A stretch of DNA of 64,000 nt from a virus (lineage: Duplodnaviria > Caudoviricetes), in the IMG/VR virus record IMGVR_UViG_2617270876_000003, positions 130,209 through 194,208 of that record; one strand, 5' to 3'. The notes beneath the pieces were generated by a model. The model worked only from the letters and a program-made list of their open reading frames with translations, was not told the origin of the DNA and searched no databases. The translations under genes were made by a program, and so were the position numbers. This document shows, one piece after another, positions 28,872 through 58,182 of this stretch (positions are counted from its first letter, which is position 1; every line of letters begins with the position of its first letter).

Positions 28872-28889
28872 GTAAAAGAGTTATTTTAT
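28872..28889. repeat. Dispersed palindrome A (RTRAAA-N6-TTTYAY)
   Basis: GTAAAA-GAGTTA-TTTTAT, immediately upstream of the second recombinase. Confidence 0.6.
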
Positions 28890-28917
28890 AAGAAAATCAA
28901 TAAATAGAAAGTGTGGT

Positions 28918-29973
28918 TTGATGGCTTCCAAAATTACAAAAGTTAAATATTTCACACCTGAAAAGAAGGCACTTATCTCTCCTGCAAACAAAAAATTATA
29001 TGAGAAATACCTTAACAGCAGCATTATTAAAAACAGAGATGTTAAGGAAACTACATATAAAACATATGAAAATTACTTTACTCAATTCCTAGTCTTTCTT
29101 GCTGAAAAGTACGACAATATTGGATTATATAGCGAAGAATTCTTTGAAGATGCGGTAGAGATTATGGAATCTTTTATTTCTTTTTGTCAGGAGACTTTAA
29201 AGAATAATAAGAAAGTAATCAATACGAAAATTTCATCTGTTAGTACTTTCTATCTCTGGAGCATGAAGAGAAAATTAGTTGATAGGCATCCATTCGATAA
29301 ACAGTTGGAACGAATGAAAGGTGCGAGTGAAGAAAAGATCATAAACTCTTATTTCCTTAATGATGAGGAAGTAGAAATTATTAAATATGGACTTAATGAA
29401 GAAGGCAGCAGATTTGACATTCAAGATAAAATTATATGGGAAGTAATGCTTGAATCTGCCAACCGAATCGGAGCTATCTCCAAACTGACTCTCTCCTCAC
29501 TTGATATTGAAAATATGATTTTCACTGATATCCGCGAAAAACGTGGATATAAAGTTGAAGTTGTGTTTGGTGAAGAAGGGCGAGATCTAATCAAGCAATG
29601 GCTTGAGATGCGAAAAGAAATGGATAATTTAGCTGTAGATTCCCTATTTATCACAAAATACAGAAACGAGTATAAACCAATGGATAAGGGAACAATTCAA
29701 GAACGAATTAAGAAAATCGGAGCAATAATTGGCCTTGATGACTTTCACGCCCACTGTATTCGTAAGACACAACTAAACTCTGTTTACGAGAAAACCGGGG
29801 ATTTGTCATTGGCAGCGGAACTTGCTAACCACAAAAGCATTGAAACTACTAGGCAATCGTACATTAAACCTCAATCTAAAGCCGAAGTTCGAGATAAAAT
29901 TAATAAAATGAAAGAAAAAATGAAAAGAGAAAAGGAAATAGCTGAGAAAAAGGAGTCAAATAATGAAAGTTAA
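28918..29973 (+). CDS. Tyrosine recombinase (YomM-like) within the tail module
   Basis: R (NRIGA), K (EKR), HxxR (HCIR), H (ANH), Y (QSY). Confidence 0.88.
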   Translation: MMASKITKVKYFTPEKKALISPANKKLYEKYLNSSIIKNRDVKETTYKTYENYFTQFLVFLAEKYDNIGLYSEEFFEDAVEIMESFISFCQETLKNNKKVINTKISSVSTFYLWSMKRKLVDRHPFDKQLERMKGASEEKIINSYFLNDEEVEIIKYGLNEEGSRFDIQDKIIWEVMLESANRIGAISKLTLSSLDIENMIFTDIREKRGYKVEVVFGEEGRDLIKQWLEMRKEMDNLAVDSLFITKYRNEYKPMDKGTIQERIKKIGAIIGLDDFHAHCIRKTQLNSVYEKTGDLSLAAELANHKSIETTRQSYIKPQSKAEVRDKINKMKEKMKREKEIAEKKESNNES

Positions 29974-30211
29974 AATCAGCGGCATTGAAGTTGAAGGTAC
30001 GCCAGAGGAAATTGCAAAGTTAAAAGAATTGCTTGCTGAATTGACTGTCGACAAATTTCCTGAGTGGGATTATGTAAGTCCATATACTTACCCTGTCTCT
30101 CCCATTATTCCAACCCCACTCTATACAAATCCAATTTGGTGTGGAGGATATAGTTCTAGCGCAAATACTCAACATAGTAAGAAAGATTTAAGTATCCAAA
30201 CATGGAACTAA
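29963..30211 (+). CDS. Small hypothetical protein
   Basis: AAGGAG RBS, I..EGTPEEI motif. Confidence 0.7.
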   Translation: MKVKISGIEVEGTPEEIAKLKELLAELTVDKFPEWDYVSPYTYPVSPIIPTPLYTNPIWCGGYSSSANTQHSKKDLSIQTWN

Positions 30212-30220
30212 ATCAATTTG

Positions 30221-30279
30221 ATAAAACTATCCTTTCATCATAAAAATACATATTAAAACCCCTTTATTATCAAGGGTTT
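30221..30279. repeat. Bipartite palindromic element (A + 17 bp + B)
   Basis: ATAAAA-CTATCC-TTTCAT, 17 bp, AAACCCCTTTATTATCAAGGGTTT. Confidence 0.65.
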
Positions 30280-30295
30280 AAGGGAGTCAAAATAA

Positions 30296-30712
30296 ATGAA
30301 AATTAAAAAATATGAACTTGAACCGTTTATCACTTACCTTCACTCTCTCAAACTTGATCGTGCAGATAGCCGTTTGAGAACTCGTTTCAAAAAAATTCTG
30401 CTTGATAAGTATCAACAATTTACAGAAGAGTTGGAAGAAATCAATCAAAACTACGCTATTAAAAATGAACAAGGCGAAGTTGTTGTTCAAGATAATAAAC
30501 TAACTTTTGAAAATAACGATGAACGACTAAAAGAAATCCATGACTTGAGCATAGAAGTTATCATTATTGAACAAAATGAAGAGAATAAAAAGATGCTCCT
30601 ATCAGTTAAAGAGTCCGTTCTTTATCGCGGACCAGAAAAATTCGAAGAAAAAGATGCAGATATTTATGATTGCTTGGCAGAAATTGTAGAGCAAATTAAT
30701 TATGAAAATTAA
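30296..30712 (+). CDS. DUF1617-like phage protein
   Basis: L..LKL...DSRLRTRF...L motif and DIYDCLAE end. Confidence 0.6.
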   Translation: MKIKKYELEPFITYLHSLKLDRADSRLRTRFKKILLDKYQQFTEELEEINQNYAIKNEQGEVVVQDNKLTFENNDERLKEIHDLSIEVIIIEQNEENKKMLLSVKESVLYRGPEKFEEKDADIYDCLAEIVEQINYEN

Positions 30713-30789
30713 TATTTGTAGTTAAATAGTCAACATCTATTTTAGGTGTTGATTCTTTTGATTATGAATATTAATACATATGCAAAAGT

Positions 30790-30822
30790 AAGAAGCGACT
30801 AATTGGGTTCGCTTCTTTTTTA
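30790..30822 (+). terminator. Intrinsic terminator upstream of the tape measure gene
   Basis: AAGAAGCGA...TCGCTTCTT followed by a T-tract. Confidence 0.65.
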
Positions 30823-30845
30823 TTATAAAAAGGAGTGAATTTTAA

Positions 30846-33800
30846 ATGGCAAATGAACTGGGAATATTATTGACAGCAAGCCTTAATCAAGGTGCAAGTG
30901 TCAAATCCGTCAACGAGAGTATCAAAGCATTAAGCTCTCATCCTTCTCTACAAAAGTTAAATGTAAAAATAAATGTTGACCAATCATTTGTAAAATCAAT
31001 TAGTTCATTTATTGATGCAACAAAAAAGCTCAACAGTAATCTCGAAGCACAAAATAGAGTTGTTAAAGAAACTATTACTGAGTTTAAAAATCTTGATGGT
31101 TCCATAACTAAGACTACTCAACAGATTCTTGCAAATGGCGAACTTATTGAGAAATCAAGGACTAAACATGATGCCAACAAGAAAGCAATAAATGAAGAAT
31201 CTAAGGCTTACGACGAACAGAGAAAAACACTATCACAGTTAGAAGCAGAAATGAATGGATACATTAAAGCTTCTGAAAAAGTAAATCGTAATAAAGCTGG
31301 ACAAATAAATAGCATTACCAATACATATAAAAATGCTGATACTGGCAAAACAGTAACGGTCAATACCGATTCTGAAGGAAATGTTAACAATTATTCTAAG
31401 GTATCGAATTATTTAAAAGCTGAACAAGATGCTCTGAAGGCCGAACAAGAAATAAATAGGCAGCGGGAGCAAATAGCCAAAGAAGAATACAACACTAGGA
31501 AGGCTTTGGCTGATAAAAATTTAAGAGAAGAAGAACAAAGAAATAAAGAATTTATTGCTGCACTTAAAGAGAGATATAGCCAAGAACAAGCAATATTAAA
31601 AAATCAAGAAGAAATGGAGAAAATCCATTATCTCGCTCTTCAACAAAATCAAAAACGCGAAGAACAATATGCTAAATCTGTTGCAGACACTCAGCAAAAA
31701 ATTAATGACGCTAGAAATAAATATGGCAATAATAATCATGTAGTTTCCAGTCTTAATGAACTTGAGAGTAAATTAAAATCAATCAGTAATATCGGTGATT
31801 TTAAGTCTCCCCTCTCCTCCCTTAATAATGATTTAAAGAGAACAATAAGCCACTTAGATGAAGGATCTCATCATTCGCGATCATTTGGTGATTCACTTAA
31901 ACATGCATTCAGTAATATTGCGCTATATGGCGGACTCGGTTCTGTATTAATGGGAGTTCAACAATTTTTCAAAGAAGGCATCTCTTACGTTAATGAATTA
32001 AATAAGTCTCTGACCGAATTATCTATTGTTTACATGCAAGGACAAGATGAAGTAGAAAAATACGCAGAGAAATTTCATGAATTAGGCATGCAGATGAGCA
32101 TCACAAGTTCAGAGCTTGCTAAGGGGGCTGTTGAATTTGCGAGACAGGGTTTATCCCAAGAAGAGACATTCTCTAGAATGGAAACAGCAGTTAAGTATGC
32201 CAAGATCAGTAATTTAGATTTTACTACAAGTGCAAAAATCCTAACTGCTACTGTCAACAGTATGGGGATTAGTATTGAAAGGGCAAGCGATGTATTTTCT
32301 TATTTGGGCGATGCTACAGCGACAGATGCTTCAGAAGTTGGAGAGGCATTTCAACGTGTAGGAGGTACTGCGGGTGCAATTGGTGTTGAATTTGAAAAAG
32401 TTGCTTCATGGATTGCGACCATTTCTTCAAATACAAGAGAGTCGGCTTCTACTATTGGTAATAGCGTAAAATCTATCCTTGCGAGAATGGAGTCTCTCAG
32501 AGAAAAGGGCTTCGACGAAGAAGATGGAACTAAAGTCAACGATGTGGCAAAAGCCTTAGCGACAATCGGAGTAAAATTAATAGATACCCAAGGTAATTTC
32601 AGAGATTTTGGTACTGTTATGGATGAGATTGGGGCAAAATGGTCCACTCTATCAAATAGACAGCAGGCGTATATTTCAACCGCAACAGCAGGAAGCTATC
32701 AGAGTGCGCGGTTCCTTTCACTTATGAGTGACTACCAGCAATCTATGGACTTGTATAGGGGCGCTTTAGATAGTGCTGGTACATCAACAGAAAAATTTGG
32801 TTTATATCAACAAGGTACCGAAGCCCATATCGATAAAATGAAGACTGCTCTTGAAGGTTTATGGTCTAGTATGTTTAAGTCTGATGGTATCAGAAGTGTC
32901 GTAGATATGTTGACTGGGCTTTTTACTGTTTTAGATAGGGTAACAAAAACATTTGGTGGATTGCAAACAATTATGGGTACAGCAACAATTGCATTTTTGT
33001 TGTTTAACCGTAATATTCCAAATGTTGCATTAGGAGTAATGGGAATTAATTTAAAAGCTGTAGCCCTGTCAATGAAAATCTTTACAGGATCTACGATAGC
33101 AGCAAGAGCAGCCGTTATTGGCCTTCAAGCTGCCATGAGTCTTGGTCTTACTGTTGCAATTATGGGAGTCACTACACTAATATCAAAACTTGTTTCTGCT
33201 AACCAGAAAGCAAAAGAAGAGCAAGAAGCACTTGCTGCTCAACAAAAAACAATTGCAACTAATTGGTCTGAACAGAAAGGTAGTATCATTGGCTTAATTG
33301 CCGAATATCAGAATCTTAACGAAGTAACTAAGGGCGGTACAGTATTTTCAGACACCGAACAAGAGCAAAAATATAGAGATCTTATCGACCAAATTAGTGG
33401 CCTTATGCCCAACCTCGTCGCAAGTATTGATGACAAGGGCGAAAAACATCTAAAGAATGCTGATGCAATCAAGCAAGAACTTGACTATACCGAAAAGTTA
33501 ACCAAAGCACAGCAAGAACAAACTGTAATCGATGCAGGTAAAAATTTCGACAAACAGATCGACGAAATCGAAGATTACAATAAGCAAATCAAAAACTTGC
33601 AAGCTAAGATGGCTTTGGGTGGTTCGTATATAACGGATGGTATGGGTGGGGCAACATTCTTGCCGTTTACAGATTCAGAACTAAATAAATTTAAGATTCA
33701 ATTATTAACTTTACAAAGTAAAGTGGCATCCAGCAGTAGTGTCATGCGAGATGACTTAGGAAGTATTACAAAGAACATCTTGACCATAAATGGAACTAAA

Positions 33801-37858: not shown

Positions 37859-37868
37859 ATGTTAAGAG

Positions 37869-41980: not shown

Positions 41981-42694
41981 ATGAAAAAAATATCTACATT
42001 CATCCTGGGTGCTGTTGTTGGAGTGACTCTTACTGCTGGAACAGCCGCAACAGCAGCGACATTTCTCAAGGCAACACCAAAAACAGTCAAAATTGTAGTG
42101 GGTAGCAATCAAAAGGCAGTAGAAGCTATGAACGTAAACAATAAACTGTATGTTTCAGTTCGTGACGCAGGAAATTCATTCGGATACTCAGTTAGCGGGG
42201 TAACAACTTCTACAGTTGCATTCAAAGAAGGAGTGACTACCAGTTCGGGAAGTACCCAAACTTCTGGAACAAGCACAGGAAGCGCAACATCAACTAAAGA
42301 GGGAGGGGAATATGTGGAGGGGCTACACGACAAGTATTCCACTGATGGAAAATTAGATGCTGATAAAATTAAGGCTGCAATTGCAGCGGGGGAAATTACG
42401 GTTAATGCGCAGGATAAAGAAACCGGAAATAGCATTTTGCACTACGTTGTTTTAGAAGATAATTTCGCTGTGTATTCAGTGATTAAAGTAAATGCTTTGA
42501 ATGTTAATATTCAGAATAAAGATGGTCAAACACCATTACATTTGGCTGTAATAAATGAAAGAATTTTTTACTTGGCGGAACTTAAGGATTATAAAGCAGA
42601 TGCAAAAATTAAAGACAATGCAGAAAAACGTCCGATAGATTATGCCGTCAAAAACTCGTCTACCTATATCAGTCTTGAAGTATATATGTTGTAA
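41981..42694 (+). CDS. Secreted ankyrin-repeat protein
   Basis: Signal peptide MKKISTFILGAVVGVTLTAG. Ankyrin motifs VNAQDKETGNSILH, VNIQNKDGQTPLHLAV, KDNAEKRPIDYA. Confidence 0.85.
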   Translation: MKKISTFILGAVVGVTLTAGTAATAATFLKATPKTVKIVVGSNQKAVEAMNVNNKLYVSVRDAGNSFGYSVSGVTTSTVAFKEGVTTSSGSTQTSGTSTGSATSTKEGGEYVEGLHDKYSTDGKLDADKIKAAIAAGEITVNAQDKETGNSILHYVVLEDNFAVYSVIKVNALNVNIQNKDGQTPLHLAVINERIFYLAELKDYKADAKIKDNAEKRPIDYAVKNSSTYISLEVYML

Positions 42695-42706
42695 TAAAAT
42701 ATCATC

Positions 42707-42751
42707 ATAATAAAAAAGACCAACTGTGATAAGTCGGTCTTTTTTATTATG
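42707..42751. terminator. Bidirectional terminator between convergent genes
   Basis: CATAATAAAAAAGACC...GGTCTTTTTTATTATG inverted repeat. Confidence 0.8.
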
Positions 42752-42752
42752 T

Positions 42753-43022
42753 CTATTTATTTACGTTTGGAGAATAATACACCCCATTCTTCCCTGCTTC
42801 TATATACACATCGTTCGGAATCCATGCAAGTTTATAGTTTAATACTTCTGCTATCTCTTTAATTTCAGAAAATTTTATGGTTCCACGTGTCAATTTGTTG
42901 TTTAGATTTTGTATAGTATCTTCTCTACCATATTTTTTATTAAGACTTGATACTAGCTGAGACATAGTTATGTCATTTTGTATTAATAACATTTGAATTT
43001 CTTTTTTTATGTAAGAAGACAT
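42753..43022 (-). CDS. Small XRE-like helix-turn-helix regulator
   Basis: ITMSQLV..LN.......QNLNNKL.RGTIKFSEI..IAEVL.Y. GGAGGTG RBS. Confidence 0.75.
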   Translation of the reverse strand: MSSYIKKEIQMLLIQNDITMSQLVSSLNKKYGREDTIQNLNNKLTRGTIKFSEIKEIAEVLNYKLAWIPNDVYIEAGKNGVYYSPNVNK

Positions 43023-43095
43023 TATTTGATCACCTCCACCCTAATTATAAAGTAAAAATAAATAATTTCAATAGTAAAAATTTCCAAAATATTTG

Positions 43096-43140
43096 TTGCA
43101 TTATTATACTTCATAATGTAATATTACACTATAAAGTATA
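43096..43140 (+). promoter_or_regulatory. SigA promoter overlapped by a 36-bp palindromic operator
   Basis: TTGCAT-17-TAATAT. TATACTTCATAATGTAAT|ATTACACTATAAAGTATA at 43105-43140. A related half site ATTATAAAGTA lies near 43044. Confidence 0.65.
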
Positions 43141-43154
43141 AGGAGATGGTTCAA

Positions 43155-43541
43155 ATGCAAACCAAAGTCCAATTCATTACCAATTTACATGAAGGCATCA
43201 ACATCTACTACGTCTTAGATCAATTTGGTCGCACATGGCACACTGTGGCCTCATCCCCATCAGAAGCAAAAAATAACATCAAGTTTGGTGAGGATGCTCT
43301 GACGTATAAATTATACACTACCGAGAAATTTGGTGAAAGTCTTCCCCAATATGATTTCAAAAATCTGATTCTAGATATACTGGAGCAAATGGGATTGCAA
43401 GATACATATGAGTATGAGGAGGTTGTGGGTTGGGACAATTGGGAGTGCTTTAAATTCATGAAACGATCATCCCTTCATCCTTGTGAATTACTTTTAGAAA
43501 TTCAAAAATCAAACATGAACTTTGATCATTGTGCGGGATAA
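43155..43541 (+). CDS. Hypothetical protein
   Basis: AGGAG RBS, first gene after the operator. Confidence 0.7.
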   Translation: MQTKVQFITNLHEGINIYYVLDQFGRTWHTVASSPSEAKNNIKFGEDALTYKLYTTEKFGESLPQYDFKNLILDILEQMGLQDTYEYEEVVGWDNWECFKFMKRSSLHPCELLLEIQKSNMNFDHCAG

Positions 43542-43688
43542 TCATCTGAATTGTTTCCCCGGTGGAAAAAAGTTACTCATTTACATAGACGAGCTTAGTT
43601 GAGTTGATATGAGAACTATGAATCGCCCAAACAGGTTGAAGACGATTAGTTGACTCATACATAAAACTATGATAAGGGATGATTTTTA

Positions 43689-44423
43689 ATGATTAAGACT
43701 TTTGAGCACGAACTATTTGGACAGATTAGAACGACTGTGAAAGACGATGAAGTGTATTTCAATTTGTATGATACTGGCTTGGCATTGGGTTATACAAAAA
43801 AGAATGGTATTGGCACTGTATATCTATTTAAAGATAGATTGGCAAAAATTTGCGAATCCTTTGATATTACTGGTGTGTACGGCACGTACACAGATGAAAA
43901 AGCCATGATTACCAAAGAAAGTGATTTTGAGAATTTGTATATTATCGAAGAGAACATTTACGATTTGATTTTTGAGTCTCAGGCAAAAAATGCTCGATCA
44001 TTCCGTAAATGGGTTACAAGTGATGTCCTCCCTGCTATTCGTAGAGACGGAATGTATGTTTCCGAAGACGCTACACACGAACAAGTAAAATTCAATCCAG
44101 ATGTATTCATGTCTAATCTTGATGATTATAATATTACAAAGCTTTATGATTTGATTGAGGCATTTCTTTCTTTCCACAGAGAGAAGAAAACGAGACTTCC
44201 TTTTAAACGCAAAAGTGCCAAGCATCACGGAAATAAGAAATTCAAAGATCATATCGACAGTATGGAAGAAATTCGAGATCAATTGATGAGTTTTCTTGAG
44301 GCAAAAATACATCAATTTAATGATTCCAATCAAGCTGGATTGGCACAAGAATATGTACGGATTAAGGGCATGGTTCACTGGAAAGTTGAAAACATGAGAT
44401 ATCGGACTGCTGCTTGCAAATAA
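43689..44423 (+). CDS. BRO-N domain antirepressor-like protein
   Basis: FEHELFGQIRT...GLALGY...IYDLIFES....ARSFRKWVTSDVLPAIRRDGMY. Confidence 0.88.
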   Translation: MIKTFEHELFGQIRTTVKDDEVYFNLYDTGLALGYTKKNGIGTVYLFKDRLAKICESFDITGVYGTYTDEKAMITKESDFENLYIIEENIYDLIFESQAKNARSFRKWVTSDVLPAIRRDGMYVSEDATHEQVKFNPDVFMSNLDDYNITKLYDLIEAFLSFHREKKTRLPFKRKSAKHHGNKKFKDHIDSMEEIRDQLMSFLEAKIHQFNDSNQAGLAQEYVRIKGMVHWKVENMRYRTAACK

Positions 44424-44663
44424 TTCTAATAAAGAAAGTGTCTCTGCTTACTTGAGACACTTTTAGTTTGTCTCGCCAACAACATCCCTCTCATCCGTAT
44501 CCCATATTGGGATTATGATCGTATCGAGGAAATATTGGACAAAGAGTTGTCTAAATTAGGACTAATATCACACAAGACTACTGTAAGCATTCAATAGATT
44601 ATAGACCTATAGACATGTGAGTGGTAAAATATTACTACAAAATGTCTATAGGAGGAAATAATT

Positions 44664-45242
44664 TTGAAAAAATTATCATTCATTGTTTTGTCGGTTTTGA
44701 TCTTAATATTATCTGTTCCATCATTGTCTTCTGCTGCAACAAAGTCTTCTTCTCCAAAATCAACAACTAAACCAAAACCTACTATCGTTGCATCTGGAAA
44801 ACTCAAAGGAACGATAACTTGGCAGTACAATGATTATGTTGGTACAAAGCCAGACGTAGGTGCAGAAATATATTTGATTCCAGTTAAATTAAAGAAGAAC
44901 TCGCTTGCTATTTCTGATTTTGTAAAGGTTGCCGATAAAAAAATAACTGCGAAATCAGTAGGTATTTATTATACTGTTGCAAATGGATATGGAAATTTTG
45001 AAATCAACAATATTCCAGTCGGCGATTATGTTATTTATGTCGTTTCAATGAAGACTTTAAGAGATGTGTTAACGCCTTATAACGACGAAACTGCTAACAA
45101 GCTACTGAAACCATACATTAAAAATTGGAATGACTTTTTAAAAGGCAGTATTCAAGCATCCAAGAGTGTAATTGATACAATGACAGTCGAAAAAAATCAA
45201 ACAATAGATTTTAGTTTTGATTTTGGAAACACAGTATACTAA
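44664..45242 (+). CDS. Secreted protein with beta-sandwich (carboxypeptidase-regulatory-like) domain
   Basis: Signal peptide, Ser/Lys/Pro linker, TWQYN.YVGTKPDVGA and ANGYGNFEINNIPVGDY. Has its own terminator at 45259-45284. Confidence 0.75.
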   Translation: MKKLSFIVLSVLILILSVPSLSSAATKSSSPKSTTKPKPTIVASGKLKGTITWQYNDYVGTKPDVGAEIYLIPVKLKKNSLAISDFVKVADKKITAKSVGIYYTVANGYGNFEINNIPVGDYVIYVVSMKTLRDVLTPYNDETANKLLKPYIKNWNDFLKGSIQASKSVIDTMTVEKNQTIDFSFDFGNTVY

Positions 45243-45460
45243 TTTATATAACTTCTCTAAGCGCCTCCCATAAGGCGCTTTTTTGATATCATAACGATTA
45301 GTACTATCCCCAATTCGGGTAATAATATATATCGAGTGTGAACATTTTATGCACCAAGCCTTACATGGTATCATATTTATTTAGTTCAATCAACAAAAAT
45401 TTGCTGTCAAGACGTATCTTTTCACCATGTTTTGTGGCATAATAATAAATACAGGGTGAC

Positions 45461-45474
45461 AGAACACCCGTTCG
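45461..45474. promoter_or_regulatory. LexA (SOS/Cheo) box
   Basis: AGAAC-ACCC-GTTCG matches the Bacillota consensus CGAAC-N4-GTTCG. Lies downstream of the extended -10 TGgCATAAT (45435-45443). Confidence 0.65.
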
Positions 45475-45532
45475 TAAAAGATATGTGTTTGATTTGACAA
45501 TTTGCATATCTTGTGTTAAAGGAGGGATATTG

Positions 45533-46186
45533 ATGGACGTAATTGATGTTGCGAAATGGTTTATAAAGAACGATTACGATGAGCCAAGAAACACAATTGA
45601 TGGCAATATGAAATTACAAAAATTGCTATACTTTTCTCAGTTAGTGCATCTAGCTAAGTATGGAGACAAATTATTTGATGAACCAATTAATGCATTTGTA
45701 AATGGTTCAGTTGTTGAAAAAGTTAGATTAAAATATCGTGATGATCATAGACAATTTGTGCAAGAATCAAAGTCATTTGAAGATGATTTAGATGAAACCA
45801 TACAATATACGTTATCTGTCGTAAAAGATGTGTTTGGTGATGTTGATGCAAGGGAACTTTCTAATTTAAATCATCTTCATGTTGGATGGAAAGAAGCCTT
45901 AGAAAAATCCGAGATAAGTAAGGGGAAATATTATAAGCCTCTAAGTATTATCTCATATGATACAATCATGGAACATGATATCGAAAGCATTAAAAAGGTT
46001 TTGGATGCTCATGAATCAACTATAGATTCAGGAAAAACTTTTGAATTAATAAACGGCGTTAAGTTTTATTATGATCCAGAAGAGATTAGTTTTGATGATG
46101 ACCTCCTAGAACAACTCGCATCATTCCAAGGAGAGGAATCCGCCTATATTGTTCATATGGACGAGGACGGTCTGGTATTTTATTAA
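45533..46186 (+). CDS. Panacea-domain (DUF4065/SocA-like) antitoxin
   Basis: DVAKWFI...MKLQKLLYFSQ.VHL...LFDEPI.AF.NG.VV...ELS.LNH....W. GGAGG RBS. Confidence 0.85.
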   Translation: MDVIDVAKWFIKNDYDEPRNTIDGNMKLQKLLYFSQLVHLAKYGDKLFDEPINAFVNGSVVEKVRLKYRDDHRQFVQESKSFEDDLDETIQYTLSVVKDVFGDVDARELSNLNHLHVGWKEALEKSEISKGKYYKPLSIISYDTIMEHDIESIKKVLDAHESTIDSGKTFELINGVKFYYDPEEISFDDDLLEQLASFQGEESAYIVHMDEDGLVFY

Positions 46187-46192
46187 TTAATT

Positions 46193-46609
46193 ATGGATAT
46201 TCAATGTGGCAATGGACTGTGGCTAAAATGTTTCTTCGCTAATGGCAATGAATGTGGTTATCCAAGGCCATTTTTAGTTATTTCCTGTAATGAGACCACT
46301 GGAACCATTCAATTATTGAATGTTTCATCAGTTTTGGGTAAAGAAAGAAAATTATTAATGGACTCAAACTTGCAAATTATGAGACATAATCCACCATTTC
46401 CAGATGCGTCTTTTGTTAAGCTTGATGAAGTTTATGGGTTAGACTATTTTCCGAAATTAATTAATTCAATAAAGAACCAAAATTTACTTCTTGAGGATGA
46501 GTTAAATAAAATAACGGAGGAATTTAGATCATATAAAGCAACCAATACTGTACTAAAGGTATCTTTTTCTTATCAAGACCTTATTTCTAGAAATAATAAA
46601 TTAAGATAA
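46193..46609 (+). CDS. Putative PemK/MazF-like toxin
   Basis: F......YPRPFLVIS...LLNVSS...SFVKLDEVY pattern, directly downstream of the Panacea gene. Confidence 0.6.
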   Translation: MDIQCGNGLWLKCFFANGNECGYPRPFLVISCNETTGTIQLLNVSSVLGKERKLLMDSNLQIMRHNPPFPDASFVKLDEVYGLDYFPKLINSIKNQNLLLEDELNKITEEFRSYKATNTVLKVSFSYQDLISRNNKLR

Positions 46610-46623: not shown

Positions 46624-46651
46624 CCACTCCCCTCAAAAGGAGTGGTTTTTT
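46624..46651 (+). terminator. Intrinsic terminator of the toxin-antitoxin operon
   Basis: CCACTCC...GGAGTGG followed by TTTTTT. Confidence 0.75.
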
Positions 46652-46670: not shown

Positions 46671-46729
46671 ATGAAAGTCATGTTTTATAAGAAAATAGTT
46701 CTCTCAAAGCCCTTATAAATCAAGGGTTT
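46671..46729. repeat. Bipartite palindromic element (A + 17 bp + B)
   Basis: ATGAAA-GTCATG-TTTTAT, 17 bp, AAAGCCCTTATAAATCAAGGGTTT. Confidence 0.65.
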
Positions 46730-46752
46730 TTTATTATGTCTTTTTTAAGGAA

Positions 46753-47208
46753 GTGATAACTATCGCAAATGTTGCAATAAATGGATCAAAAATAACGGAG
46801 TCTATTAAATCTGGGCATGTTACCTACAATATTTACTATTGGCAAGACGGCGATGAATTTACAAGTGGACATTGGAGTTATTCGGGGCCGGGATCAACTG
46901 GGGCAAAAATTACAGGAACAGTTACTGCTACATCTACAATGAAAGTTAATGGAGTAAGTGTGGCAGTTGTTGGCGATGTTACAAATGAAACATGGATAGC
47001 AGATCCTCCTATCCCATCTGATGATGGATATAATAAATACGTTGCAACATCTCCGACATCTGGTAGTGGTCAAGGTTCGATTACTGGTGGAAACAGTAAG
47101 AATGTAAAACTAAATGGAAGTCTTATCGCTATAGTTGGTTCAGAAGTAACAACGTGTTTGGGTAATACCACGACTATTGAGGACGGAAGTTCATTATTTA
47201 ATATGTAA
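46753..47208 (+). CDS. PAAR-like spike tip protein
   Basis: Three pseudo-repeats: VAINGS, MKVNGVSVAVVGD, VKLNGSLIAIVGS...TTC....IEDGS. Confidence 0.6.
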   Translation: MITIANVAINGSKITESIKSGHVTYNIYYWQDGDEFTSGHWSYSGPGSTGAKITGTVTATSTMKVNGVSVAVVGDVTNETWIADPPIPSDDGYNKYVATSPTSGSGQGSITGGNSKNVKLNGSLIAIVGSEVTTCLGNTTTIEDGSSLFNM

Positions 47209-49154: not shown

Positions 49155-49169
49155 TAAGGAGGTGATTAT

Positions 49170-50321: not shown

Positions 50322-50341
50322 ATAAAGGAGAAAATACATAT

Positions 50342-50881: not shown

Positions 50882-50970
50882 GAAATAAAAAATACATAAT
50901 TTACATTAGAGACACATTTATTTGTGTCTCTTTAGTTTTTAAAATCTCACAATACAATGGGAGGAAGTTT

Positions 50971-51594: not shown

Positions 51595-51613
51595 CTCAAA
51601 GGAATGATATATA

Positions 51614-51964: not shown

Positions 51965-51978
51965 AGGTTGGTGAATAA

Positions 51979-52554
51979 ATGGCTACACAAGAAATAGGGA
52001 TACCGATTGATTTAAGCAAAGGGATATTCAATAATACGGTATTTCTTAATGGAAAATTGCAGTTAATTGAACTCGCTAAAGATGATAATGATGTTCCAAT
52101 TTATCCACCTGAAGGTTATTGGATATCAGAATCTATTAGAGTTGCCGACAAGGTTACATCTTTTAAGTATATTGCAAAAAGCATCACTGGATCAGGAAGT
52201 TATAAAATTTATACCCAATCATCACCCAACGGATTTACTTGGTCTGAGTGGCAAGAGATTAATTATACTAACGGAAGCATACTTACGCCTGTTGGATATT
52301 ATGCAAAAATAAAAATATTTATATATGCGGGAAACACTAACGTGACTTTTACTATTGATGATTTTGCCGTAGTGGATAAATATATAAATCCATATATCAA
52401 CTCATCTTACGGAGTTTTGGAACTGAAAAAATCATACACCTCTCCCCTAGTCATTGATGGGTCATGGGCAGATGATGGAGTTTTAATGAAAAGCTCTGTA
52501 ATACAAAAAACGAATTATAAAAAGATAGATAAAATAGAAATTTCTACCCAGTAG
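51979..52554 (+). CDS. Tail appendage/adaptor protein
   Basis: DLSKG.F.NT...NGKLQL...GYW.S..I domain, WSEW motif. Confidence 0.6.
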   Translation: MATQEIGIPIDLSKGIFNNTVFLNGKLQLIELAKDDNDVPIYPPEGYWISESIRVADKVTSFKYIAKSITGSGSYKIYTQSSPNGFTWSEWQEINYTNGSILTPVGYYAKIKIFIYAGNTNVTFTIDDFAVVDKYINPYINSSYGVLELKKSYTSPLVIDGSWADDGVLMKSSVIQKTNYKKIDKIEISTQ

Positions 52555-52575
52555 GAGAAAATAGAGGTGATATAG

Positions 52576-53685
52576 ATGGCGATTCCGGCAAGCACAGGTC
52601 AACTTCGAACAAAAATAAGTAATATGGAGATTGGCGATTATATTATTTGCAAATATGTCGCTTCAAGCGGTGTAGTAGGAACCTTCAGCGAATTAGGAAC
52701 TAGTGTAGCTGCTGAGATTTCGACTTCTGCCGCAGCCGCGCCGAACGGGGCTTTTTATTTTGTGAAAATTGATAAAGGTTTGCTTTGTAGTGATCGTGTA
52801 ATTCAACATACAATTTCATGGGATACGCTTAATGCAGCCAAAGTCATTCAAGGTTTGCCCTGGGCTGCTGACAATTTAATCCCAACCATGACAAGCAATA
52901 CTACCCCCAGCGGTATAGTGAGCGCAAGTAGTTTTTGGACCAATGATCCGAGGTATGATGCATGGAAAGCTTTTGAGCCACTTACTAGCGCTGATTATGC
53001 ATGGTATTCAGGTGCGATGCCTACAGTTGGTTCTCCGCAAGATATAGCATATGATTTTGGTTCGCCTAAAAAAATTGGAATGTTCAGGATTACTGCGCCC
53101 ACCAATACAAACGCAAGCCCCAAAACATTTACGTTTGAAGGATGGGATGGATCGCAATGGATAGTGATCCAGAGTTATTCGTTAGGGACTTCGTGGTCGG
53201 CTGGGGAAAAGAAAACGTTCTATGCAAACAACTCGGAATTCTTTAACAAATATCGCATTAATATAACTGCAAATGACGGAAATACTTCTTACACAGGTAT
53301 AAGTTATCTTGAAATGTCAGAAACAGGAGGAAACATCCGTTCTTTTTCGGGTGGGGTAGCACCACTAGATACAAACCAGGGAGCATCGACTTCTGGTGAC
53401 AAAGGATTGGGTGGGTGGCCCATCAATAACGAATGGGATCGCTTTGTCGCGAACTTCCCTTCTGCAAAAATTCAGTCAGGAAAAACATTAGATGACGTTT
53501 TTCATTGGAAGAATATATATACATGGTCACAAGAAACTCCAATTCTGGCGTGGGGCGCAAATACTTTACGCATTCTTCGCGGTGGTGGAACAGCAACAGA
53601 AAAAGCTATAGCCAGCACTGCATCTTCAGTGGCAAGTACTAGCTATGGCTTTCGACCATTTTTGGAATATAAGGAGGTGTACTAG
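52576..53685 (+). CDS. Adhesin: C-lectin-like (GFRP) domain with inserted discoidin/F5-8 domain
   Basis: GLL..DRVIQ..ISWD.LN, IPTMTSNT.PSG..SASS, PK.FTFEG.DG..W, NEWD, TWSQE...GFRP. Confidence 0.7.
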   Translation: MAIPASTGQLRTKISNMEIGDYIICKYVASSGVVGTFSELGTSVAAEISTSAAAAPNGAFYFVKIDKGLLCSDRVIQHTISWDTLNAAKVIQGLPWAADNLIPTMTSNTTPSGIVSASSFWTNDPRYDAWKAFEPLTSADYAWYSGAMPTVGSPQDIAYDFGSPKKIGMFRITAPTNTNASPKTFTFEGWDGSQWIVIQSYSLGTSWSAGEKKTFYANNSEFFNKYRINITANDGNTSYTGISYLEMSETGGNIRSFSGGVAPLDTNQGASTSGDKGLGGWPINNEWDRFVANFPSAKIQSGKTLDDVFHWKNIYTWSQETPILAWGANTLRILRGGGTATEKAIASTASSVASTSYGFRPFLEYKEVY

Positions 53686-55413
53686 ATGGCTACAATTGGA
53701 CAAGCTTTAACTACACCCGAAGCTGGTTGGAAACGATATGAGGAAACAAGTGCTTCATTCAAGTATTTTGGGTCGTCTTGGGTGACTAGTACGTCTGCAA
53801 ATTACTCAGGAGGAGCGAGTAAGTATACAACAACGGCAAGCTTGCATTCTGTATCATTTAAATTTACAGGGCCTAAGTTGAGAATCGTATCCTATAGAGG
53901 CACAGACCGCAACCCCGCTATTAACCTCGTTATTGATGGTGTATCGTACACATACTCTGCTCAAGGAGTCGCAGGTAGTATGATACTATTATTTGATAAG
54001 ACTGACTTGACAAATGGGACACATACAGTTGTTGTTTCCGCTAATGATGCATCTGCTACTAAGATATTTGAGTGGGATGCTATTGATATAGACTCAACAG
54101 GTCGCCTTTATCATCCAGACGAAGTAACTGATCCAAAAGATTTGGTGGTTGGCAAACGAATCCGCTGCCATTATTCGGCTTCTTCTAATGTAGTGGGTGC
54201 ATTTAGCGGGTTAGGACAAGAAACATCGGATTTTATTCCTGTTGCAAGTTCTGCGACACCTAATGGCGATTTCTACTATATTATGTGTGAAGATTTTAAT
54301 AAAAATAAGATTTTAGTTGCAGATAGAAATGTCCAAAGCAATATATCATGGGATGTATTGAACTCAGCGGGAATTGCTTCGGGTAGTGGAATACAAAATA
54401 TTTTAAATGCCATACCAAATATAACATCTGATACTAGTTCTCTCGGTATAGTTACTTCTGATAGTTTATATGCTAATACATCATGGGCACGGTGGAAAGC
54501 TTTTGACGGTAATGGGGCTGTTGCTAATCATTATGGATGGTGCGGGGCAGTAATAAATAGTGGGTGGCTCGCTTATGATTTCATAGTTCCTAAAATAATT
54601 AATTCGTATAGTTTATTGCCAAGTCAAGCGTCACCTTCAGTAAACAACGGATGTATGCCTAAAAACTGGACATTCGAAGGTTGGAATGGAAGTCAATGGA
54701 TTGTTCTCCATCAGGTAACAAATGAACCATCATGGGGAACTGCGGCTGTAACAACGACGAGGGTTTATAATTTTAATAATACAACCCCGTATTCAAAATA
54801 TAGAATCAACATATCAGCAACTATTAGCGGAACTTATGAGCCTGTTATTGGACAAATGGGAATGTTTGAGAATACAAACTACTCCAATACAACTCGTCTT
54901 CTTACAGGTGGCATAACATCTACTGATAAAGATAATGAATGGGATAAATATATTGTCAACTCAACGTTGGGCGGTACAATCACGGCAGGAGATAACAACG
55001 TATGGAGCTGGAGTGGAATATACAGTTGGGCATCTACAACAACCGCTGCTGGTGGTTATAGAGTAATAAGAGGTAGCGGTTTGGCTAATAGCTATTCGAA
55101 TCTAGCAACAAGTTCTACTGCTGGATTCCGTCCAGTTCTTATCATTGAATCTAACCCACAAACCAGATTTTTAATTAAAGATCAAAACGAATATAAAACT
55201 TTTGAAACATCATGGAACACGATATCAACAACTTTACCTTCAAAAGATACTTTTATTAGTGATGGCATAACAGACTTAGCAATTTTAAATCGAAAAGCGA
55301 CAATAATCCATCAAGTAATGTCTAATAATGGAACGTTAGGTAACGGCAAGACTTTTAAGACAACAATTGATTTAAATAAATATTTTGAAATTCAGAAATT
55401 AAATATGAAGTAG
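53686..55413 (+). CDS. Adhesin: beta-sandwich plus C-lectin-like domain with inserted discoidin domain
   Basis: ADRNVQ..ISWD.LN, MPKNWTFEG, NEWD, YSW.ST...GFRPVL. Confidence 0.7.
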   Translation: MATIGQALTTPEAGWKRYEETSASFKYFGSSWVTSTSANYSGGASKYTTTASLHSVSFKFTGPKLRIVSYRGTDRNPAINLVIDGVSYTYSAQGVAGSMILLFDKTDLTNGTHTVVVSANDASATKIFEWDAIDIDSTGRLYHPDEVTDPKDLVVGKRIRCHYSASSNVVGAFSGLGQETSDFIPVASSATPNGDFYYIMCEDFNKNKILVADRNVQSNISWDVLNSAGIASGSGIQNILNAIPNITSDTSSLGIVTSDSLYANTSWARWKAFDGNGAVANHYGWCGAVINSGWLAYDFIVPKIINSYSLLPSQASPSVNNGCMPKNWTFEGWNGSQWIVLHQVTNEPSWGTAAVTTTRVYNFNNTTPYSKYRINISATISGTYEPVIGQMGMFENTNYSNTTRLLTGGITSTDKDNEWDKYIVNSTLGGTITAGDNNVWSWSGIYSWASTTTAAGGYRVIRGSGLANSYSNLATSSTAGFRPVLIIESNPQTRFLIKDQNEYKTFETSWNTISTTLPSKDTFISDGITDLAILNRKATIIHQVMSNNGTLGNGKTFKTTIDLNKYFEIQKLNMK

Positions 55414-55440
55414 GGCGAAACGCTCTACTTCTTTTATTTT
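55407..55440 (+). terminator. Intrinsic terminator
   Basis: GAAGTAGGGCG-AAA-CGCTCTACTTC followed by TTTT. Confidence 0.75.
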
Positions 55441-55441
55441 G

Positions 55442-55500
55442 CTAAAATAACGATTTTACTTTGAAATAGACAGTTTAAAACCTAGTTGTAACAAGGTTTT
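55442..55500. repeat. Bipartite palindromic element (A + 17 bp + B)
   Basis: CTAAAA-TAACGA-TTTTAC, 17 bp, AAAACCTAGTTGTAACAAGGTTTT. Confidence 0.6.
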
Positions 55501-55522
55501 AAAGAGATAGGAGAGTGAGAGA

Positions 55523-56863
55523 ATGGGTAGTTTTGGTGTAAATTTAATACCACAAATGACTTCAATGACTGCCCCAGGCGGTGTGGTTACTGCAAGTACG
55601 CAATCAAATACTAATACAGCTTGGAATGCCTTTAATAGAGATACAGCAGATATAGGATGGAACACCGCAAGCGGAACACTCATAGGATGGTTAGCATATG
55701 AATTTTCAACAGCAACAGTGATAGATGCTTATGTTAACTACGGATATACTGATAATAGATCGCCTAAAAACTGGACTTTTGAAGGTAGTCAAGATGGTAC
55801 TACTTGGGTTGTGTTAGATACAAGGACGAACGTTACTTCTTATGCTACACCACAGGAGTTTACTTTTACAAATACAGTTGCTTATAAAAGATATAGAATC
55901 AACGTAACCGCGAACAATGGTAGCACAACTTTTTTAGGAATTAAAGAGTTAACAATGCACAAACAGTATCTAAATAAAATCTTACTTTCGTCCGAAAATA
56001 ATGTAAAGTCAATAAATACTGAAAAAAATATGGTCGTGAATACTGGGTCTAGCGTGGCATTTAACAATAAAGTAGTAACTGCAAGAAATCTTGCACAGAC
56101 AGTTATGTTTAAGGTGAAAGTAGATAATTTACCATCAGGAACAATGGATATAATCAGCCATATAAACTCAGGCAATGTTAGTAAATTTAAAGCATCTATA
56201 AGTACCATTGGAACAGTAGTTATATATTCCGCATACACATCTTCATTAGCTTCAATTAATCTACAAACCAACTCTCCTTTACTAAATATTTGTGATGGTA
56301 AATGGCACGACATAGCGTATACTTGGGACGGTACAACGAATAGCGGTGCAGCTAAATTGTATGTCGATAATATGACTACGCCCTATACGACTCAAACTGT
56401 TTCGAATATTCAAACTACTGAAACTACGGGATATTTAACCGTTGGTAATGGGACTTTTGGCAGTTTTAATATAAAAGATTTTGCTTCGATCACCAGAGTT
56501 GCTACTACACAAGAATTATCGGATTTTAAGGCAGGAAGCTTATCGCTATCTACAGCGAACATGAATGCTTATTTTAAATTTCAAGATAGCAAAAATGGTA
56601 CAGTAGACAATTTGGTTACTGGAACAACGATAAGTGGCGTTGCCAATAATGTTGATTTTGTTTTCCCAAAGATAATAGACTTAAAATCATCTAGCGAACA
56701 CAACTTTCTAAGTTATGGTTTAGACAACTCTCTTTTGGTTCCAGATGAAATCGAAGGAATTACCGATATCAATGATGCATCAGTTAATTTAGGTACAGGA
56801 AAAACATTTTCGCACACAATTGATTTATCGAAGAGGAAAATAAATAAGATATTATTTCAGTAA
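55523..56863 (+). CDS. Adhesin: discoidin plus LamG/concanavalin-like domain
   Basis: PKNWTFEGSQDG..W..LD and DGKWHDIAYTWDG......KLYVD. Confidence 0.75.
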   Translation: MGSFGVNLIPQMTSMTAPGGVVTASTQSNTNTAWNAFNRDTADIGWNTASGTLIGWLAYEFSTATVIDAYVNYGYTDNRSPKNWTFEGSQDGTTWVVLDTRTNVTSYATPQEFTFTNTVAYKRYRINVTANNGSTTFLGIKELTMHKQYLNKILLSSENNVKSINTEKNMVVNTGSSVAFNNKVVTARNLAQTVMFKVKVDNLPSGTMDIISHINSGNVSKFKASISTIGTVVIYSAYTSSLASINLQTNSPLLNICDGKWHDIAYTWDGTTNSGAAKLYVDNMTTPYTTQTVSNIQTTETTGYLTVGNGTFGSFNIKDFASITRVATTQELSDFKAGSLSLSTANMNAYFKFQDSKNGTVDNLVTGTTISGVANNVDFVFPKIIDLKSSSEHNFLSYGLDNSLLVPDEIEGITDINDASVNLGTGKTFSHTIDLSKRKINKILFQ

Positions 56864-56949
56864 GAAGTGGGGTTAAATGCTCTACTTCTTTTTGTTTTGT
56901 TTAAATGAAATGTTTTATTTAGTAATGAATTAGATGGGAAGGCGAGAAA

Positions 56950-58161
56950 ATGCCAACATATAGTGCAAATATAGTTCCGCAAATGACAGCTAGTAACGCA
57001 CCAACACCATACGTGATATCTGCATCATCACAAATAGATGCAACCAGCTATCCAGCATGGAAAGCATTTAATAGGAGTGTTACAGGTAATTTTCAATCAT
57101 GGTTAACTCCTGCTGGTACGTTGACAGGATGGTTGAGAATTGATTTAGGCGTTGCTAGAATTGTTGGGAAATACTCCCTTCAATTGAGCAACGAAAGTGG
57201 ATTGGATATATGTATGCCTAAAAACTGGACTTTTGAAGGAAGTAATGACACTTCAAACTGGACTGTTTTAGATACAAGAAGTAATGAACCTTCATGGACT
57301 GCCAACGCAAGGAGAGAATACACATTTAGCAATAATACTGCTTACCGATATTATAGAATCAATGTAACCGCAAATCAAGGAAGTATCAATTATCTTGCAA
57401 TATCCGAAATGGAATTGATGGAAGTTTCAATTTTAAATAAATTCTTGATTTCATCAGGTAACGAGTATTATGCTGCTCGTCCAAAGACAAAGGGAGCAGA
57501 AAAAATAATACCAGTTATGACCACATACACTTCAAATGGAGTAACTGTTACTGGCGATACTGATGGTTCATCCTTTCAGGCTTGGAAGTTATTCGATGGG
57601 GTAACTTCGAGCTTATGGTTGTCGAACAACATTTCTTCTTCAGCGAAGGTTGAGATTGATTTGGGTAGCAACAAACAGATTCCTTTCTCTTACACTCTAA
57701 CAGGAAGTGCTGATACAATTCCTCTATCACCTCAAACGTGGAAAGTTTATGGGAGCAACGGTGATGGTTGGGAAGAATTAGATTCACAAACAGGAATTAA
57801 AAATTGGATATTGGGAGAAACCAAGGAATTCACTCTTAAAACGACAAACTCATATAACAAGTATAGGCTGGAAATAATCTCCTCTGTGTCTGATGGGGCA
57901 AACAGGAAGTCGGCAAATGAGTTTAATCTAATTGCATGTAAAGAAGGATATGATGGAACAGGGTTAATCATCGAACCCGTGGCAGTAGAAGGCAGTTTCA
58001 TTAAGAACGGAATGGATAAAAATACTATTGTAAATTTGGATACTGCTTTTAGTAGAAAGTCATTTGTAAATAGAGGGGATACGGCCATTGGTTCTGGTAA
58101 AGTATTTAAACAGTCTATCGACTCAACTAAAATACCAATTAAGAATGTGACAATTACATAG
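56950..58161 (+). CDS. Adhesin with two discoidin/F5-8 domains
   Basis: AWKAF...PKNWTFEGSND..W..LD and AWKLFDG...PQTWKVYGSN...W..LD. Confidence 0.75.
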   Translation: MPTYSANIVPQMTASNAPTPYVISASSQIDATSYPAWKAFNRSVTGNFQSWLTPAGTLTGWLRIDLGVARIVGKYSLQLSNESGLDICMPKNWTFEGSNDTSNWTVLDTRSNEPSWTANARREYTFSNNTAYRYYRINVTANQGSINYLAISEMELMEVSILNKFLISSGNEYYAARPKTKGAEKIIPVMTTYTSNGVTVTGDTDGSSFQAWKLFDGVTSSLWLSNNISSSAKVEIDLGSNKQIPFSYTLTGSADTIPLSPQTWKVYGSNGDGWEELDSQTGIKNWILGETKEFTLKTTNSYNKYRLEIISSVSDGANRKSANEFNLIACKEGYDGTGLIIEPVAVEGSFIKNGMDKNTIVNLDTAFSRKSFVNRGDTAIGSGKVFKQSIDSTKIPIKNVTIT

Positions 58162-58164
58162 AAC

Positions 58165-58182
58165 ATAAAATGATTGTTTTAT
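58165..58182. repeat. Dispersed palindrome A
   Basis: ATAAAA-TGATTG-TTTTAT(AAG) between adhesin genes. Confidence 0.6.

Follow-up and report, generated by a model that had tools for sequence, protein, structure and literature searches.

A dispersed DNA dyad of SPbeta-like phages probably marks, and may drive, modular gene exchange

The window analysed here is a 64,000-nucleotide stretch of viral DNA (positions 130,209 to 194,208 of IMG/VR record IMGVR_UViG_2617270876_000003), which lies within a large prophage of a single-contig 5.87 Mb genome (G000). The prophage measures about 191.5 kb, extends from about -127 kb to +64.2 kb in window coordinates, and is a distant relative of Bacillus phage SPbeta, as judged by a local tblastn comparison. 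We found that it carries dozens of copies of an 18-bp palindrome, dyad A, with the strict form RTRAAA-N6-TTTYAY, some of them accompanied at a fixed distance by a second dyad, B. Our results suggest that A is a DNA junction element of SPbeta-like phages, that is, a place where gene modules are exchanged, and we assign this reading a probability of about 0.75. The dyad probably marks modular gene exchange and may drive it.

Dyad A is far more abundant than expected by chance. The window holds 8 strict copies where 0.50 are expected, a count reached in 0 of 100 shuffles, and the whole prophage holds 57, whereas Markov simulations of that DNA (order 1 and order 3) gave 2.1-2.3 and never more than 8. 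With only about 2 copies in these composition-matched simulations, the AT-rich background that the original prediction had named as a concern does not account for the motif. The enrichment is confined to one geometry: for spacings of 3 to 10 nt between the half-sites, the prophage counts were 2, 3, 6, 57, 0, 5, 2, and 2, so spacing 6 alone is enriched, and neither the everted (6) nor the direct (3) arrangement of half-sites is. In the whole genome there are 78 strict copies. The 57 of the prophage lie between -127138 and +64154, and 8 of the other 21 fall in a second prophage of the YopP/YonO type at about 3.25-3.31 Mb. One-mismatch copies amount to 82 in the prophage, compared with 276 across the remaining 97% of the genome, which puts the true A family at roughly 100-130. 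The aligned sites consist of two inverted 6-bp arms, weakly extended to about 9 bp (T at -1/-2 and A at +20/+21), around a 6-bp spacer of free sequence. Inverted arms with such a spacer correspond to the core-site geometry of tyrosine recombinases (6-8 bp centre). The copies first noticed at 28872, 30221, 46671, and 58165 are strict, while the imperfect ones carry one mismatch (55442) and, by inspection, two (56905). The copies within the originally delimited interval 28872-58182 are therefore real, but the element spans the whole prophage.

The placement of A is tight. According to gene calls that were crude, 51 of the 57 strict prophage copies are intergenic, although 84% of the region is coding; the earlier statement that all copies found were intergenic had missed the intragenic matches at 5643, 22317, and 51699, as well as the copy at 62100 and several with one mismatch. 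The intragenic matches were taken as coding by-products because the ones at 5643 and 22317 recur within orthologous genes of two other genomes, G109 and G071. The end of A lies at most 45 nt from a called start in 38 of the 57 copies, mostly at 17-30 nt, and in gene orientation the layout is a stop codon, A, a purine-rich segment of 5-12 nt, the Shine-Dalgarno sequence, and the start codon. In about a third of the oriented sites the upstream stop is itself the T-R-A at positions 2-4 of A (10 of 33 in this prophage, 6 of 12 in SPbeta, 13 of 37 in genome G069, and 8 of 24 in G109). The two arms vary independently. At the position pair 3/16, also in gene orientation, A.C was found 15 times, A-T 13 times, G-C 7 times, and G.T 6 times among 41 sites, without covariation. 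Therefore, the symmetry belongs to duplex DNA read by a dimer and not to an RNA stem, and on these pair counts A was rejected as an RNA hairpin. No sigma-A -35/-10 pair at fitting distances was found in the aligned A sites by inspection and consensus scans. In these scans, promoter-like sites numbered 70 against a shuffle mean of 79 and 94 against 74, which is no excess, and A and B were both rejected as sigma-A promoters for want of consistent hexamers.

Dyad B has the form AAAAnCCYT, about 7 nt, ARGGnTTTT, with 9-bp arms flanked by A and T runs. It begins exactly 17 bp after A at 30256, 46706, and 55477, and the register is free of gaps in all 12 composites collected (8 in this prophage, 3 in G109, and 1 in G069), so that the fixed A-B spacing first proposed from three sites now extends to three genomes. 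A regular expression for the composite gave 6 matches in the whole genome, all inside the prophage and with B on the same side, and 2 more members were recognized by eye. Since B always lies on the same genomic side of A, it is upstream of A for the early leftward genes and between A and the ribosome-binding site (RBS) for the late ones. The composite behind the YomM-like recombinase gene is kept at the orthologous place in G109, and in G069 and G109 the composites close to the right end of the prophage hardly differ from one another. With -6 to -10 kcal/mol, the stems of B are weak; against mononucleotide shuffles, 8 of the 12 composites have a fold z of -2.0 or lower. The copy at 46706-46730 passes a terminator scan; at 30256 and 55477 the T runs are just 3-4 long, with two or three G-C pairs. 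An accessory recombination site and a weak bidirectional terminator or attenuator are the candidate roles that we see for the fixed register and side. It could also be argued that these elements act in RNA, as an AU-rich hairpin or motif guiding the processing, stability, or translation of the next cistron, given that A always lies in transcribed intercistronic space beside a Shine-Dalgarno sequence and that B folds better than shuffles in most composites. This is very improbable: A.C mismatches at 3/16 in 15 of the 41 sites show no covariation, a six-pair A-U stem would be barely stable, and symmetry without pairing makes sense only for duplex DNA. Moreover, Rfam at gathering thresholds gave 0 matches in the window.

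The same dyad occurs in other phages. In SPbeta, TAAAA-N6-TTTTA is the top-scoring dyad, with 34 copies against 2.3 expected; strict A occurs 15 times against 1.8 in simulations, in the same intercistronic position, and 29 of the 36 SPbeta core sites of the form TRAAA-N6-TTTYA are located in the early arm. Among 116 genomes of the host genus, A matches reached at least twice the reversed-pattern control in 7. In the 220 kb fetched around a syntenic SPbeta-like prophage, G069 holds 54 strict copies and G109 holds 37. The YonO-type prophage of G071 is only about 50 kb long, has no comparable early arm, and helped little in mapping junctions; 5 strict copies were counted in the 220 kb read. Dyad A is conserved in four phage lineages, from Bacillus subtilis phages to prophages of another genus. 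No description of it was found in the literature searched, whose scope left out the 1999 SPbeta genome paper and one preprint supplement, and in the portion available, the text of the Kohm preprint has no wording on a palindrome or repeated element.

SPbeta has another repeated element, SPBRE, reportedly defined by Lazarevic et al. in that 1999 genome paper. From ten published target promoters of MrpR we derived it as ACAAAnAATATGTAT, situated between -35 and -10 of early sigma-A promoters. As far as the accessible part of the report goes, chromatin affinity purification followed by sequencing (ChAP-seq) gave ten MrpR peaks, all at SPBRE promoters (Kohm et al. 2023, PMC10516654). The second option of the original prediction, that A is the operator of an MrpR-type master repressor and the equivalent of SPBRE, could draw on the YopR/MrpR-like gene of the prophage and on the precedent, in the same partly accessible report, of a recombinase-fold repressor that binds inverted arms (PMC10516654). 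We give it very little credence. SPbeta holds both motifs, with ten SPBRE peaks against 36 A core sites; the two sequences differ; and in this prophage no SPBRE-like repeat was found within 3 mismatches. YopQ-like genes without an A excess were seen in four genomes (G023, G034, G125, and G007), with the adjacent YopR-like gene confirmed only in G023 and G125, the latter being uninformative in that its contig stops just past the YopQ/YopR-like genes.

The behaviour of A at gene junctions points to variable genes. We examined 326 gene junctions of this prophage, allowing A at most one mismatch. Where both neighbouring genes are conserved and also adjacent in G069, A is absent from all 24 junctions; of the 302 others, 97 carry it (p=2.5e-4). 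The same test against G109 gave 2 of 23 versus 95 of 303 (p=0.03). Similarly, 42 of 50 ortholog pairs shared with G069 have no A upstream in either phage. Because conserved adjacent pairs are without it, A accompanies variable genes, and the early suggestion that the dyad sits at such boundaries is supported. G109 shares with this prophage 9 short nucleotide matches at 70-78% identity and is too diverged for breakpoint mapping. The variable region of SPbeta at 81.5-101.5 kb (20 kb) was compared with five Spbetaviruses. Of 74 match ends in this region, 28 are no more than 15 nt away from an A centre, a distance reached by 1.8% of random positions, and a breakpoint is present in all 10 gaps that bear A but in 11 of the 27 other gaps (p=0.0017). 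Genome-wide, SPbeta and phi3T give 6 of 62 ends within 12 nt of an A centre, against 0.6% of random positions, and a breakpoint in 14 of 31 gaps with A against 27 of 162 without (odds ratio 4.1, p=0.0012).

In the alignments, homology begins at the first base of A or stops just past its last base. Two blocks of 99.97-100% identity, at 83687-86899 (phi3T) and 86073-86907 (Goe13), end in A on both sides, and their outer flanks are unrelated. In two deletions (phi3T 87598 x 88399 and SPbetaL1 95128 x 95562), an arm of one A copy has been joined to the spacer and far arm of another; as the arms are identical, the crossover point within these junctions is not placeable. In 7 of 23 records, homology to SPbeta stops at 116431, the last base of an A copy. 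In the SPbeta relatives, therefore, match ends and two deletion junctions do fall on the site, as had been proposed for breakpoints between related phages.

Two recombinases of the window are candidates for reading A, and the catalytic residues R, HxxR, H, and Y are kept in both according to alignments to XerD, XerA, and XerC-like chains. Together with the core-site geometry, this is consistent with the early idea of a recombinase system. The evidence is suggestive that the YopP-like protein is the best candidate, likelier than the YomM-like one. YopP-like matches at E<=1e-20 were detected in 5 of the 116 genomes, all among the 7 with an A excess; SPbeta and both small A-bearing prophages have the gene too, and no dyad-rich element examined lacks it. 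In genome G023, an element with orthologous tail and fibre genes carries YopQ/YopR-like genes as well, yet neither a YopP-like nor a YonO-like gene, and 0 strict copies of A were found in the 160 kb read. By contrast, a YomM-like match at E<=1e-10 exists only in G000 and G109, and none was found in G069 despite its 54 copies. The YomM-like recombinase is not required for the abundance of A, and the special link between the dyad and this adjacent gene that had been supposed from the window is not upheld. The G023 element itself (L064-L071, G023:C3 about 34,700-68,700) is 34 kb long. It has orthologues of the tape-measure, baseplate, and fibre genes of the window, but the queries used detected neither head genes nor YonO-like or YopP-like ones, and it is possibly a tailocin-like remnant.

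The YonO-like single-chain RNA polymerase gene, divergent from the YopP-like gene, offers another reader. Here A would be a phage-specific promoter with its start about 5-8 nt downstream, used by a YonO-type or modified host polymerase, and B would serve as a 5' stabilising hairpin in the late region and as a terminator in the early region. The promoter of YonO is undefined, a YonO-like gene lies beside the YopP-like gene in every A-rich element examined, a purine is conserved at +23 (A in 57 of 74 sites), and three A copies of the late region follow strong terminators. Nevertheless, we consider a promoter improbable. The SPbeta stretch between yonK and yonN, in which, judging by the gene order, the mapped YonO start presumably lies, contains no A with up to one mismatch. 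YonO is needed by just 37 late genes, whereas the early arm holds 29 of the 36 SPbeta core sites. In the early region, moreover, B is upstream of A. Two halves that vary independently within a dyad are also unlike the known promoters of single-chain polymerases.

For the junction reading, a mechanism can be outlined. A protein dimer would read A as double-stranded DNA between the stop codon and the next Shine-Dalgarno sequence. A phage Xer-family tyrosine recombinase, the YopP-like protein (4292-5359) rather than the YomM-like one, would bind both arms, and strands would be exchanged at the arm/spacer borders. Co-infecting relatives could then swap a module lying between two matching A sites; rarely, two A sites of one genome might recombine and delete the intervening DNA, while their differing spacers would keep most intragenomic pairs from doing so. 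B might act as an accessory site or weak bidirectional terminator on one side of some A sites. On sequence comparison, we infer a recombinase as the reader and an exchange that would be site-specific rather than driven by microhomology, and we regard site-specific exchange through a YopP-type recombinase as a tentative proposal, a little short of even odds. A fuller version, in which dozens to more than 100 core sites "addressed" by their spacers would allow a YopP-type recombinase precise swaps of single genes or gene blocks between co-infecting relatives of otherwise stable genome, with the A-17-B composites as directional sites that bear an accessory site, seems unlikely to us; if true, it would be an integron-like or pdif-like system inside a virus. 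The interpretation first offered for the palindromes is thus partly supported: their role at module junctions and their geometry stand, but the YomM link, the MrpR analogy, and the permutation of cassettes do not.

Several observations weigh against the junction reading or against a recombinase behind it. After shared ends are merged, only 9 of the 27 breakpoint clusters in the 81.5-101.5 kb region lie within 20 nt of an A centre, and the distance to the nearest A exceeds 20 nt for 54 of the 62 SPbeta-phi3T breakpoints. The whole-genome association is inflated by the greater length of A-bearing gaps (median 88 vs 52 nt) and by their location in variable regions. None of the 31 SPbeta-phi3T matches shows a cassette at a new position; all are colinear, which speaks against mobile cassettes. 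Breakpoints that pass selection are intergenic in any case, and A occupies the little space there is between genes, so that microhomology combined with selection could produce the same pattern. The correlation with YopP is confounded, as any gene of these prophages would correlate: the YonO-like gene stands beside the YopP-like gene in every element checked, the genomes are kin, and the groups in the YopP profile were defined by the same feature, A, that was then counted. The information in A amounts to 6 positions per arm plus weak flanks, which is short of a Xer-type arm; the arms of Xer, Cre, and Flp sites are roughly 11-13 bp, longer than the 6-9 informative positions here. Spacers are unrelated between copies, a situation not tolerated by most tyrosine recombinases. 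The 74 sites have an asymmetric flank towards the gene, with A at +20 in 48 of them and at +23 in 57; a role in gene expression would also explain this. In the consulted part of a preprint by Dragos on laboratory-evolved phi3Ts-SPbeta hybrids, ordinary homologous regions account for 15 of the 16 recombination sites. The single "nonhomologous" junction of these hybrids, near yosA, was not located in the material available, in which Hyb2 and Hyb3 are 100% SPbeta across 115900-117000.

The most serious alternative is a regulatory junction motif resembling the promoter-early stem-loops (PeSLs) of T4-type phages. A would then be an operator, roadblock, or expression element bound by a dimer other than a recombinase, for example, the HU-like YonN, the ParB-like YopQ, or a helix-turn-helix protein, and, being repeated before many variable genes, it would offer passive microhomology to ordinary or annealing-protein recombination. 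The anatomy fits: in the available parts of the PeSL reports, about 50 copies per genome lie between stop codon and Shine-Dalgarno sequence, mostly before ORFans, have a stem-loop whose position varies, and form indel and replacement junctions. The tight placement of A before the Shine-Dalgarno sequence, its asymmetric gene-proximal flank, the colinearity of modules between phages, and the preference of the laboratory hybrids, in what was accessible of that preprint, for homologous regions agree with it as well, and the prophage encodes a Sak4-like annealing protein, a YorG homologue with 65% identity. On the other hand, A lacks the -35/-10 pair of a sigma-A promoter, it has no known reader, with the MrpR peaks confined to SPBRE, and an operator or roadblock leaves the absence of A at conserved pairs (0 of 24) unexplained. 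Moreover, 18 bp with 12 fixed positions are very short for homology, yet 100%-identical blocks end in A next to unrelated flanks. We consider this alternative possible while leaning against it.

The features of the window that bear on dyad A are collected in table 1, together with the YopR/MrpR-like gene outside it.

Table 1. Dyads, hairpins, and candidate readers, in window coordinates
Feature	Position	Strand	Remarks
YopR/MrpR-like gene	-43770..-42766		identified by tblastn
YopP-like Xer-family tyrosine recombinase	4292..5359	-	Phage_integrase plus SAM-like N-terminal domain (Pfam); R, HxxR, H, Y
YonO-like single-chain RNA polymerase	6176..8953	+	divergent from YopP-like gene; alternative candidate reader (promoter hypothesis)
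A-like, one mismatch	9813..9830		intergenic, 43 nt before YonN (HU)-like gene 9874-10194
A-like, one mismatch	10199..10216		intergenic, just after YonN-like stop; strict copy at same spot in G109
A-like, one mismatch, uncertain	12945..12962		inside small called ORF, 40 nt before YonG-like gene at 13003
A-like, one mismatch	27848..27865		intergenic; overlaps stop of ORF 26880-27851, abuts start of ORF 27864-28394
Dyad A, strict	28872..28889		6 nt after upstream stop; ends 28 nt before YomM-like start
YomM-like tyrosine recombinase	28918..29973	+	Phage_integrase (Pfam), no SAM-like domain; R, HxxR, H, Y; two flanking A copies
Dyad A, strict, composite A-17-B	30221..30238		follows small ORF 29963-30211; orthologous composite kept in G109
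Dyad/hairpin B, AAACCCCTT-N-AAGGGTTT	30256..30279		17 bp after A; RBS of gene 30296-30712 directly after; fold z -1.0, weak
Dyad A, strict	46671..46688		after strong terminator 46624-46645 closing the accessory island
Dyad/hairpin B	46706..46730		17 bp after A; z -3.2; scored terminator-like on the + strand by scan (9 pairs, then T run)
Dyad A, one mismatch (C at position 1)	55442..55459		after terminator 55407-55431
Dyad/hairpin B	55477..55500		17 bp after A; directly before RBS of discoidin-domain fibre gene 55523-56863; z -3.7
Weak A-like, two mismatches	56905..56922		after terminator 56862-56890, before gene 56950-58161
Dyad A, strict	58165..58182		4 nt after upstream stop; ends 21 nt before gene 58204-60231
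Strict match, family membership uncertain	62100..62117		overlaps stem of intrinsic terminator 62102-62130

Some of these places have features of their own. The intragenic copy at 5643-5660 is kept, spacer included, in a small conserved ORF (5555-5824) between the YopP-like and YonO-like genes, and likewise in G109; it may be there by coincidence of the coding sequence, or it may be a genuine site that belongs to the control region of this gene pair. The motif ATACATATACCGAAAC is found at 10224-10240, 8 nt after the A-like site behind the YonN-like gene. G109 has a near-identical motif 4 nt behind its orthologous A copy, and G069 has a looser form; the motif could be the start of a late-operon leader or a YonO-type promoter. 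In SPbeta, a gene-free stretch of 1.7 kb lies between yonN and yonK (record 59153-60833), the place of a published "unannotated non-coding RNA". Several SPbetaL records begin their numbering about 185 nt before SPbeta 115900, beside a dyad-bearing junction.

The prophage has a G+C content of 33.5%, compared with 50.8% in the remaining genome. By tblastn it contains homologues of YonO (24% identity), YonN, YonK, YonJ, YonG, the terminase, the portal, and the tape-measure protein YomI, as well as of YopP, YopQ, YopR/MrpR, YorF/G, and others. Its early arm consists of minus-strand genes left of about 5400, out to about -127 kb, and its late arm of plus-strand genes that run rightward and stop near +64.3 kb, where G+C-rich DNA starts. 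A near-identity search of the window against a phage collection gave no match. The second, smaller prophage of the same genome (G000:C1 about 3,235,000-3,310,000), with its 8 strict copies of A, has a divergent YopP-like/YonO-like pair, and its tail genes are 26-88% identical to those of the window.

In the late arm, the tail genes are separated from the baseplate/fibre block by an accessory island (41981-46609). Among its genes are one for a protein with a SocA/Panacea antitoxin domain (45485-46186) and a single minus-strand gene (42753-43022) that has a strong bidirectional terminator; a PAAR-like protein (46753-47208) follows the island. The segment 52576-62086 is a run of paralogous fibre/adhesin genes, three with N-terminal discoidin (F5/8 type C) domains and one with CBM96, and the gene at 52576-53685 (369 aa) matches five other places within the same fibre block. 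The prophage contains 90 copies of the 8-mer ATACATAT, for example at 10997, 50334, and 30246, where the genome-wide rate, biased by the low G+C content of the prophage, predicts 10. It lies almost always on the sense strand and often makes up the spacer leading into an ATG start.

Swapping marked by A, together with the orphan recombinase YopP, would provide a testable account of how accessory genes are shuffled in phages of 130-190 kb. The many small accessory genes of these phages include anti-defence and receptor-binding genes. SPbeta, a classical model phage, encodes two apparently intact tyrosine recombinases, YopP and YomM, and integrates by a serine recombinase. In the literature searched, we found no function described for YopP or YomM and no SPbeta repeat other than SPBRE.

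Known systems resemble A in part. SPBRE is likewise a repeated element with inverted arms in the same phage family, and its reader, according to the part of the report consulted, is a recombinase-fold protein (PMC10516654). It differs from A in sequence, in its number of about 10 copies, and in its location inside early sigma-A promoters. In Cluster A mycobacteriophages, the immunity repressor binds stoperators, which are asymmetric and 13-14 bp long. Like A, they are found in many copies in short intergenic spaces throughout the genome of a temperate phage and are biased in orientation with respect to transcription; unlike them, A is a dyad and avoids conserved gene pairs, and we know of no report of stoperators as mosaic junctions. 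The attC sites of integrons are structured single-strand substrates of 57-141 bp with conserved R and L boxes. They share with A the imperfect palindromes that separate promoterless, co-oriented small genes, and a tyrosine recombinase as the enzyme, but A has only 18 bp, and no cassette permutation occurs among the SPbeta-phi3T matches. No IntI-type integrase or attI/Pc platform was identified, although the IntI-specific insertion was not looked for.

Xer/dif sites and the pdif modules of Acinetobacter plasmids have inverted arms around a 6-bp centre, A/T-rich inner arms, and a position at module boundaries. A agrees with them in the inverted arms, the 6-bp centre, the A/T-rich inner positions, the Xer-family genes nearby, and the bounding of modules. 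It differs in its much shorter arms, its dozens to more than 100 sites per phage genome, and its spacers, which are all different, and no arm asymmetry of the XerC/XerD type was seen in it.

PeSLs are about 50-60 bp in size. As described in the accessible parts of two reports (Arbiol et al. 2010, PMC2839356; Comeau et al. 2014, PMC4122927), they resemble A in occurring in tens of copies per genome between stop codon and Shine-Dalgarno sequence, mostly before ORFans in variable regions and rarely in the core, and the motif is where insertions, deletions, and replacements that distinguish close relatives end; a stem-loop may be on either side of it. In the same accounts a PeSL, unlike A, combines a consensus sigma-70 promoter with a strong terminator, its function was shown by reporters, and homologous recombination is held responsible for its exchange. 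The 18-bp dyad A has no sigma-A hexamers, and hairpin B accompanies it in only 12 composites, at a fixed 17 bp and on one genomic side. Even on the weaker reading, the PeSL principle of modular shuffling through a repeated junction motif would no longer be limited to T4-type lytic phages but would hold, with a quite different motif, for temperate Firmicute phages as well.

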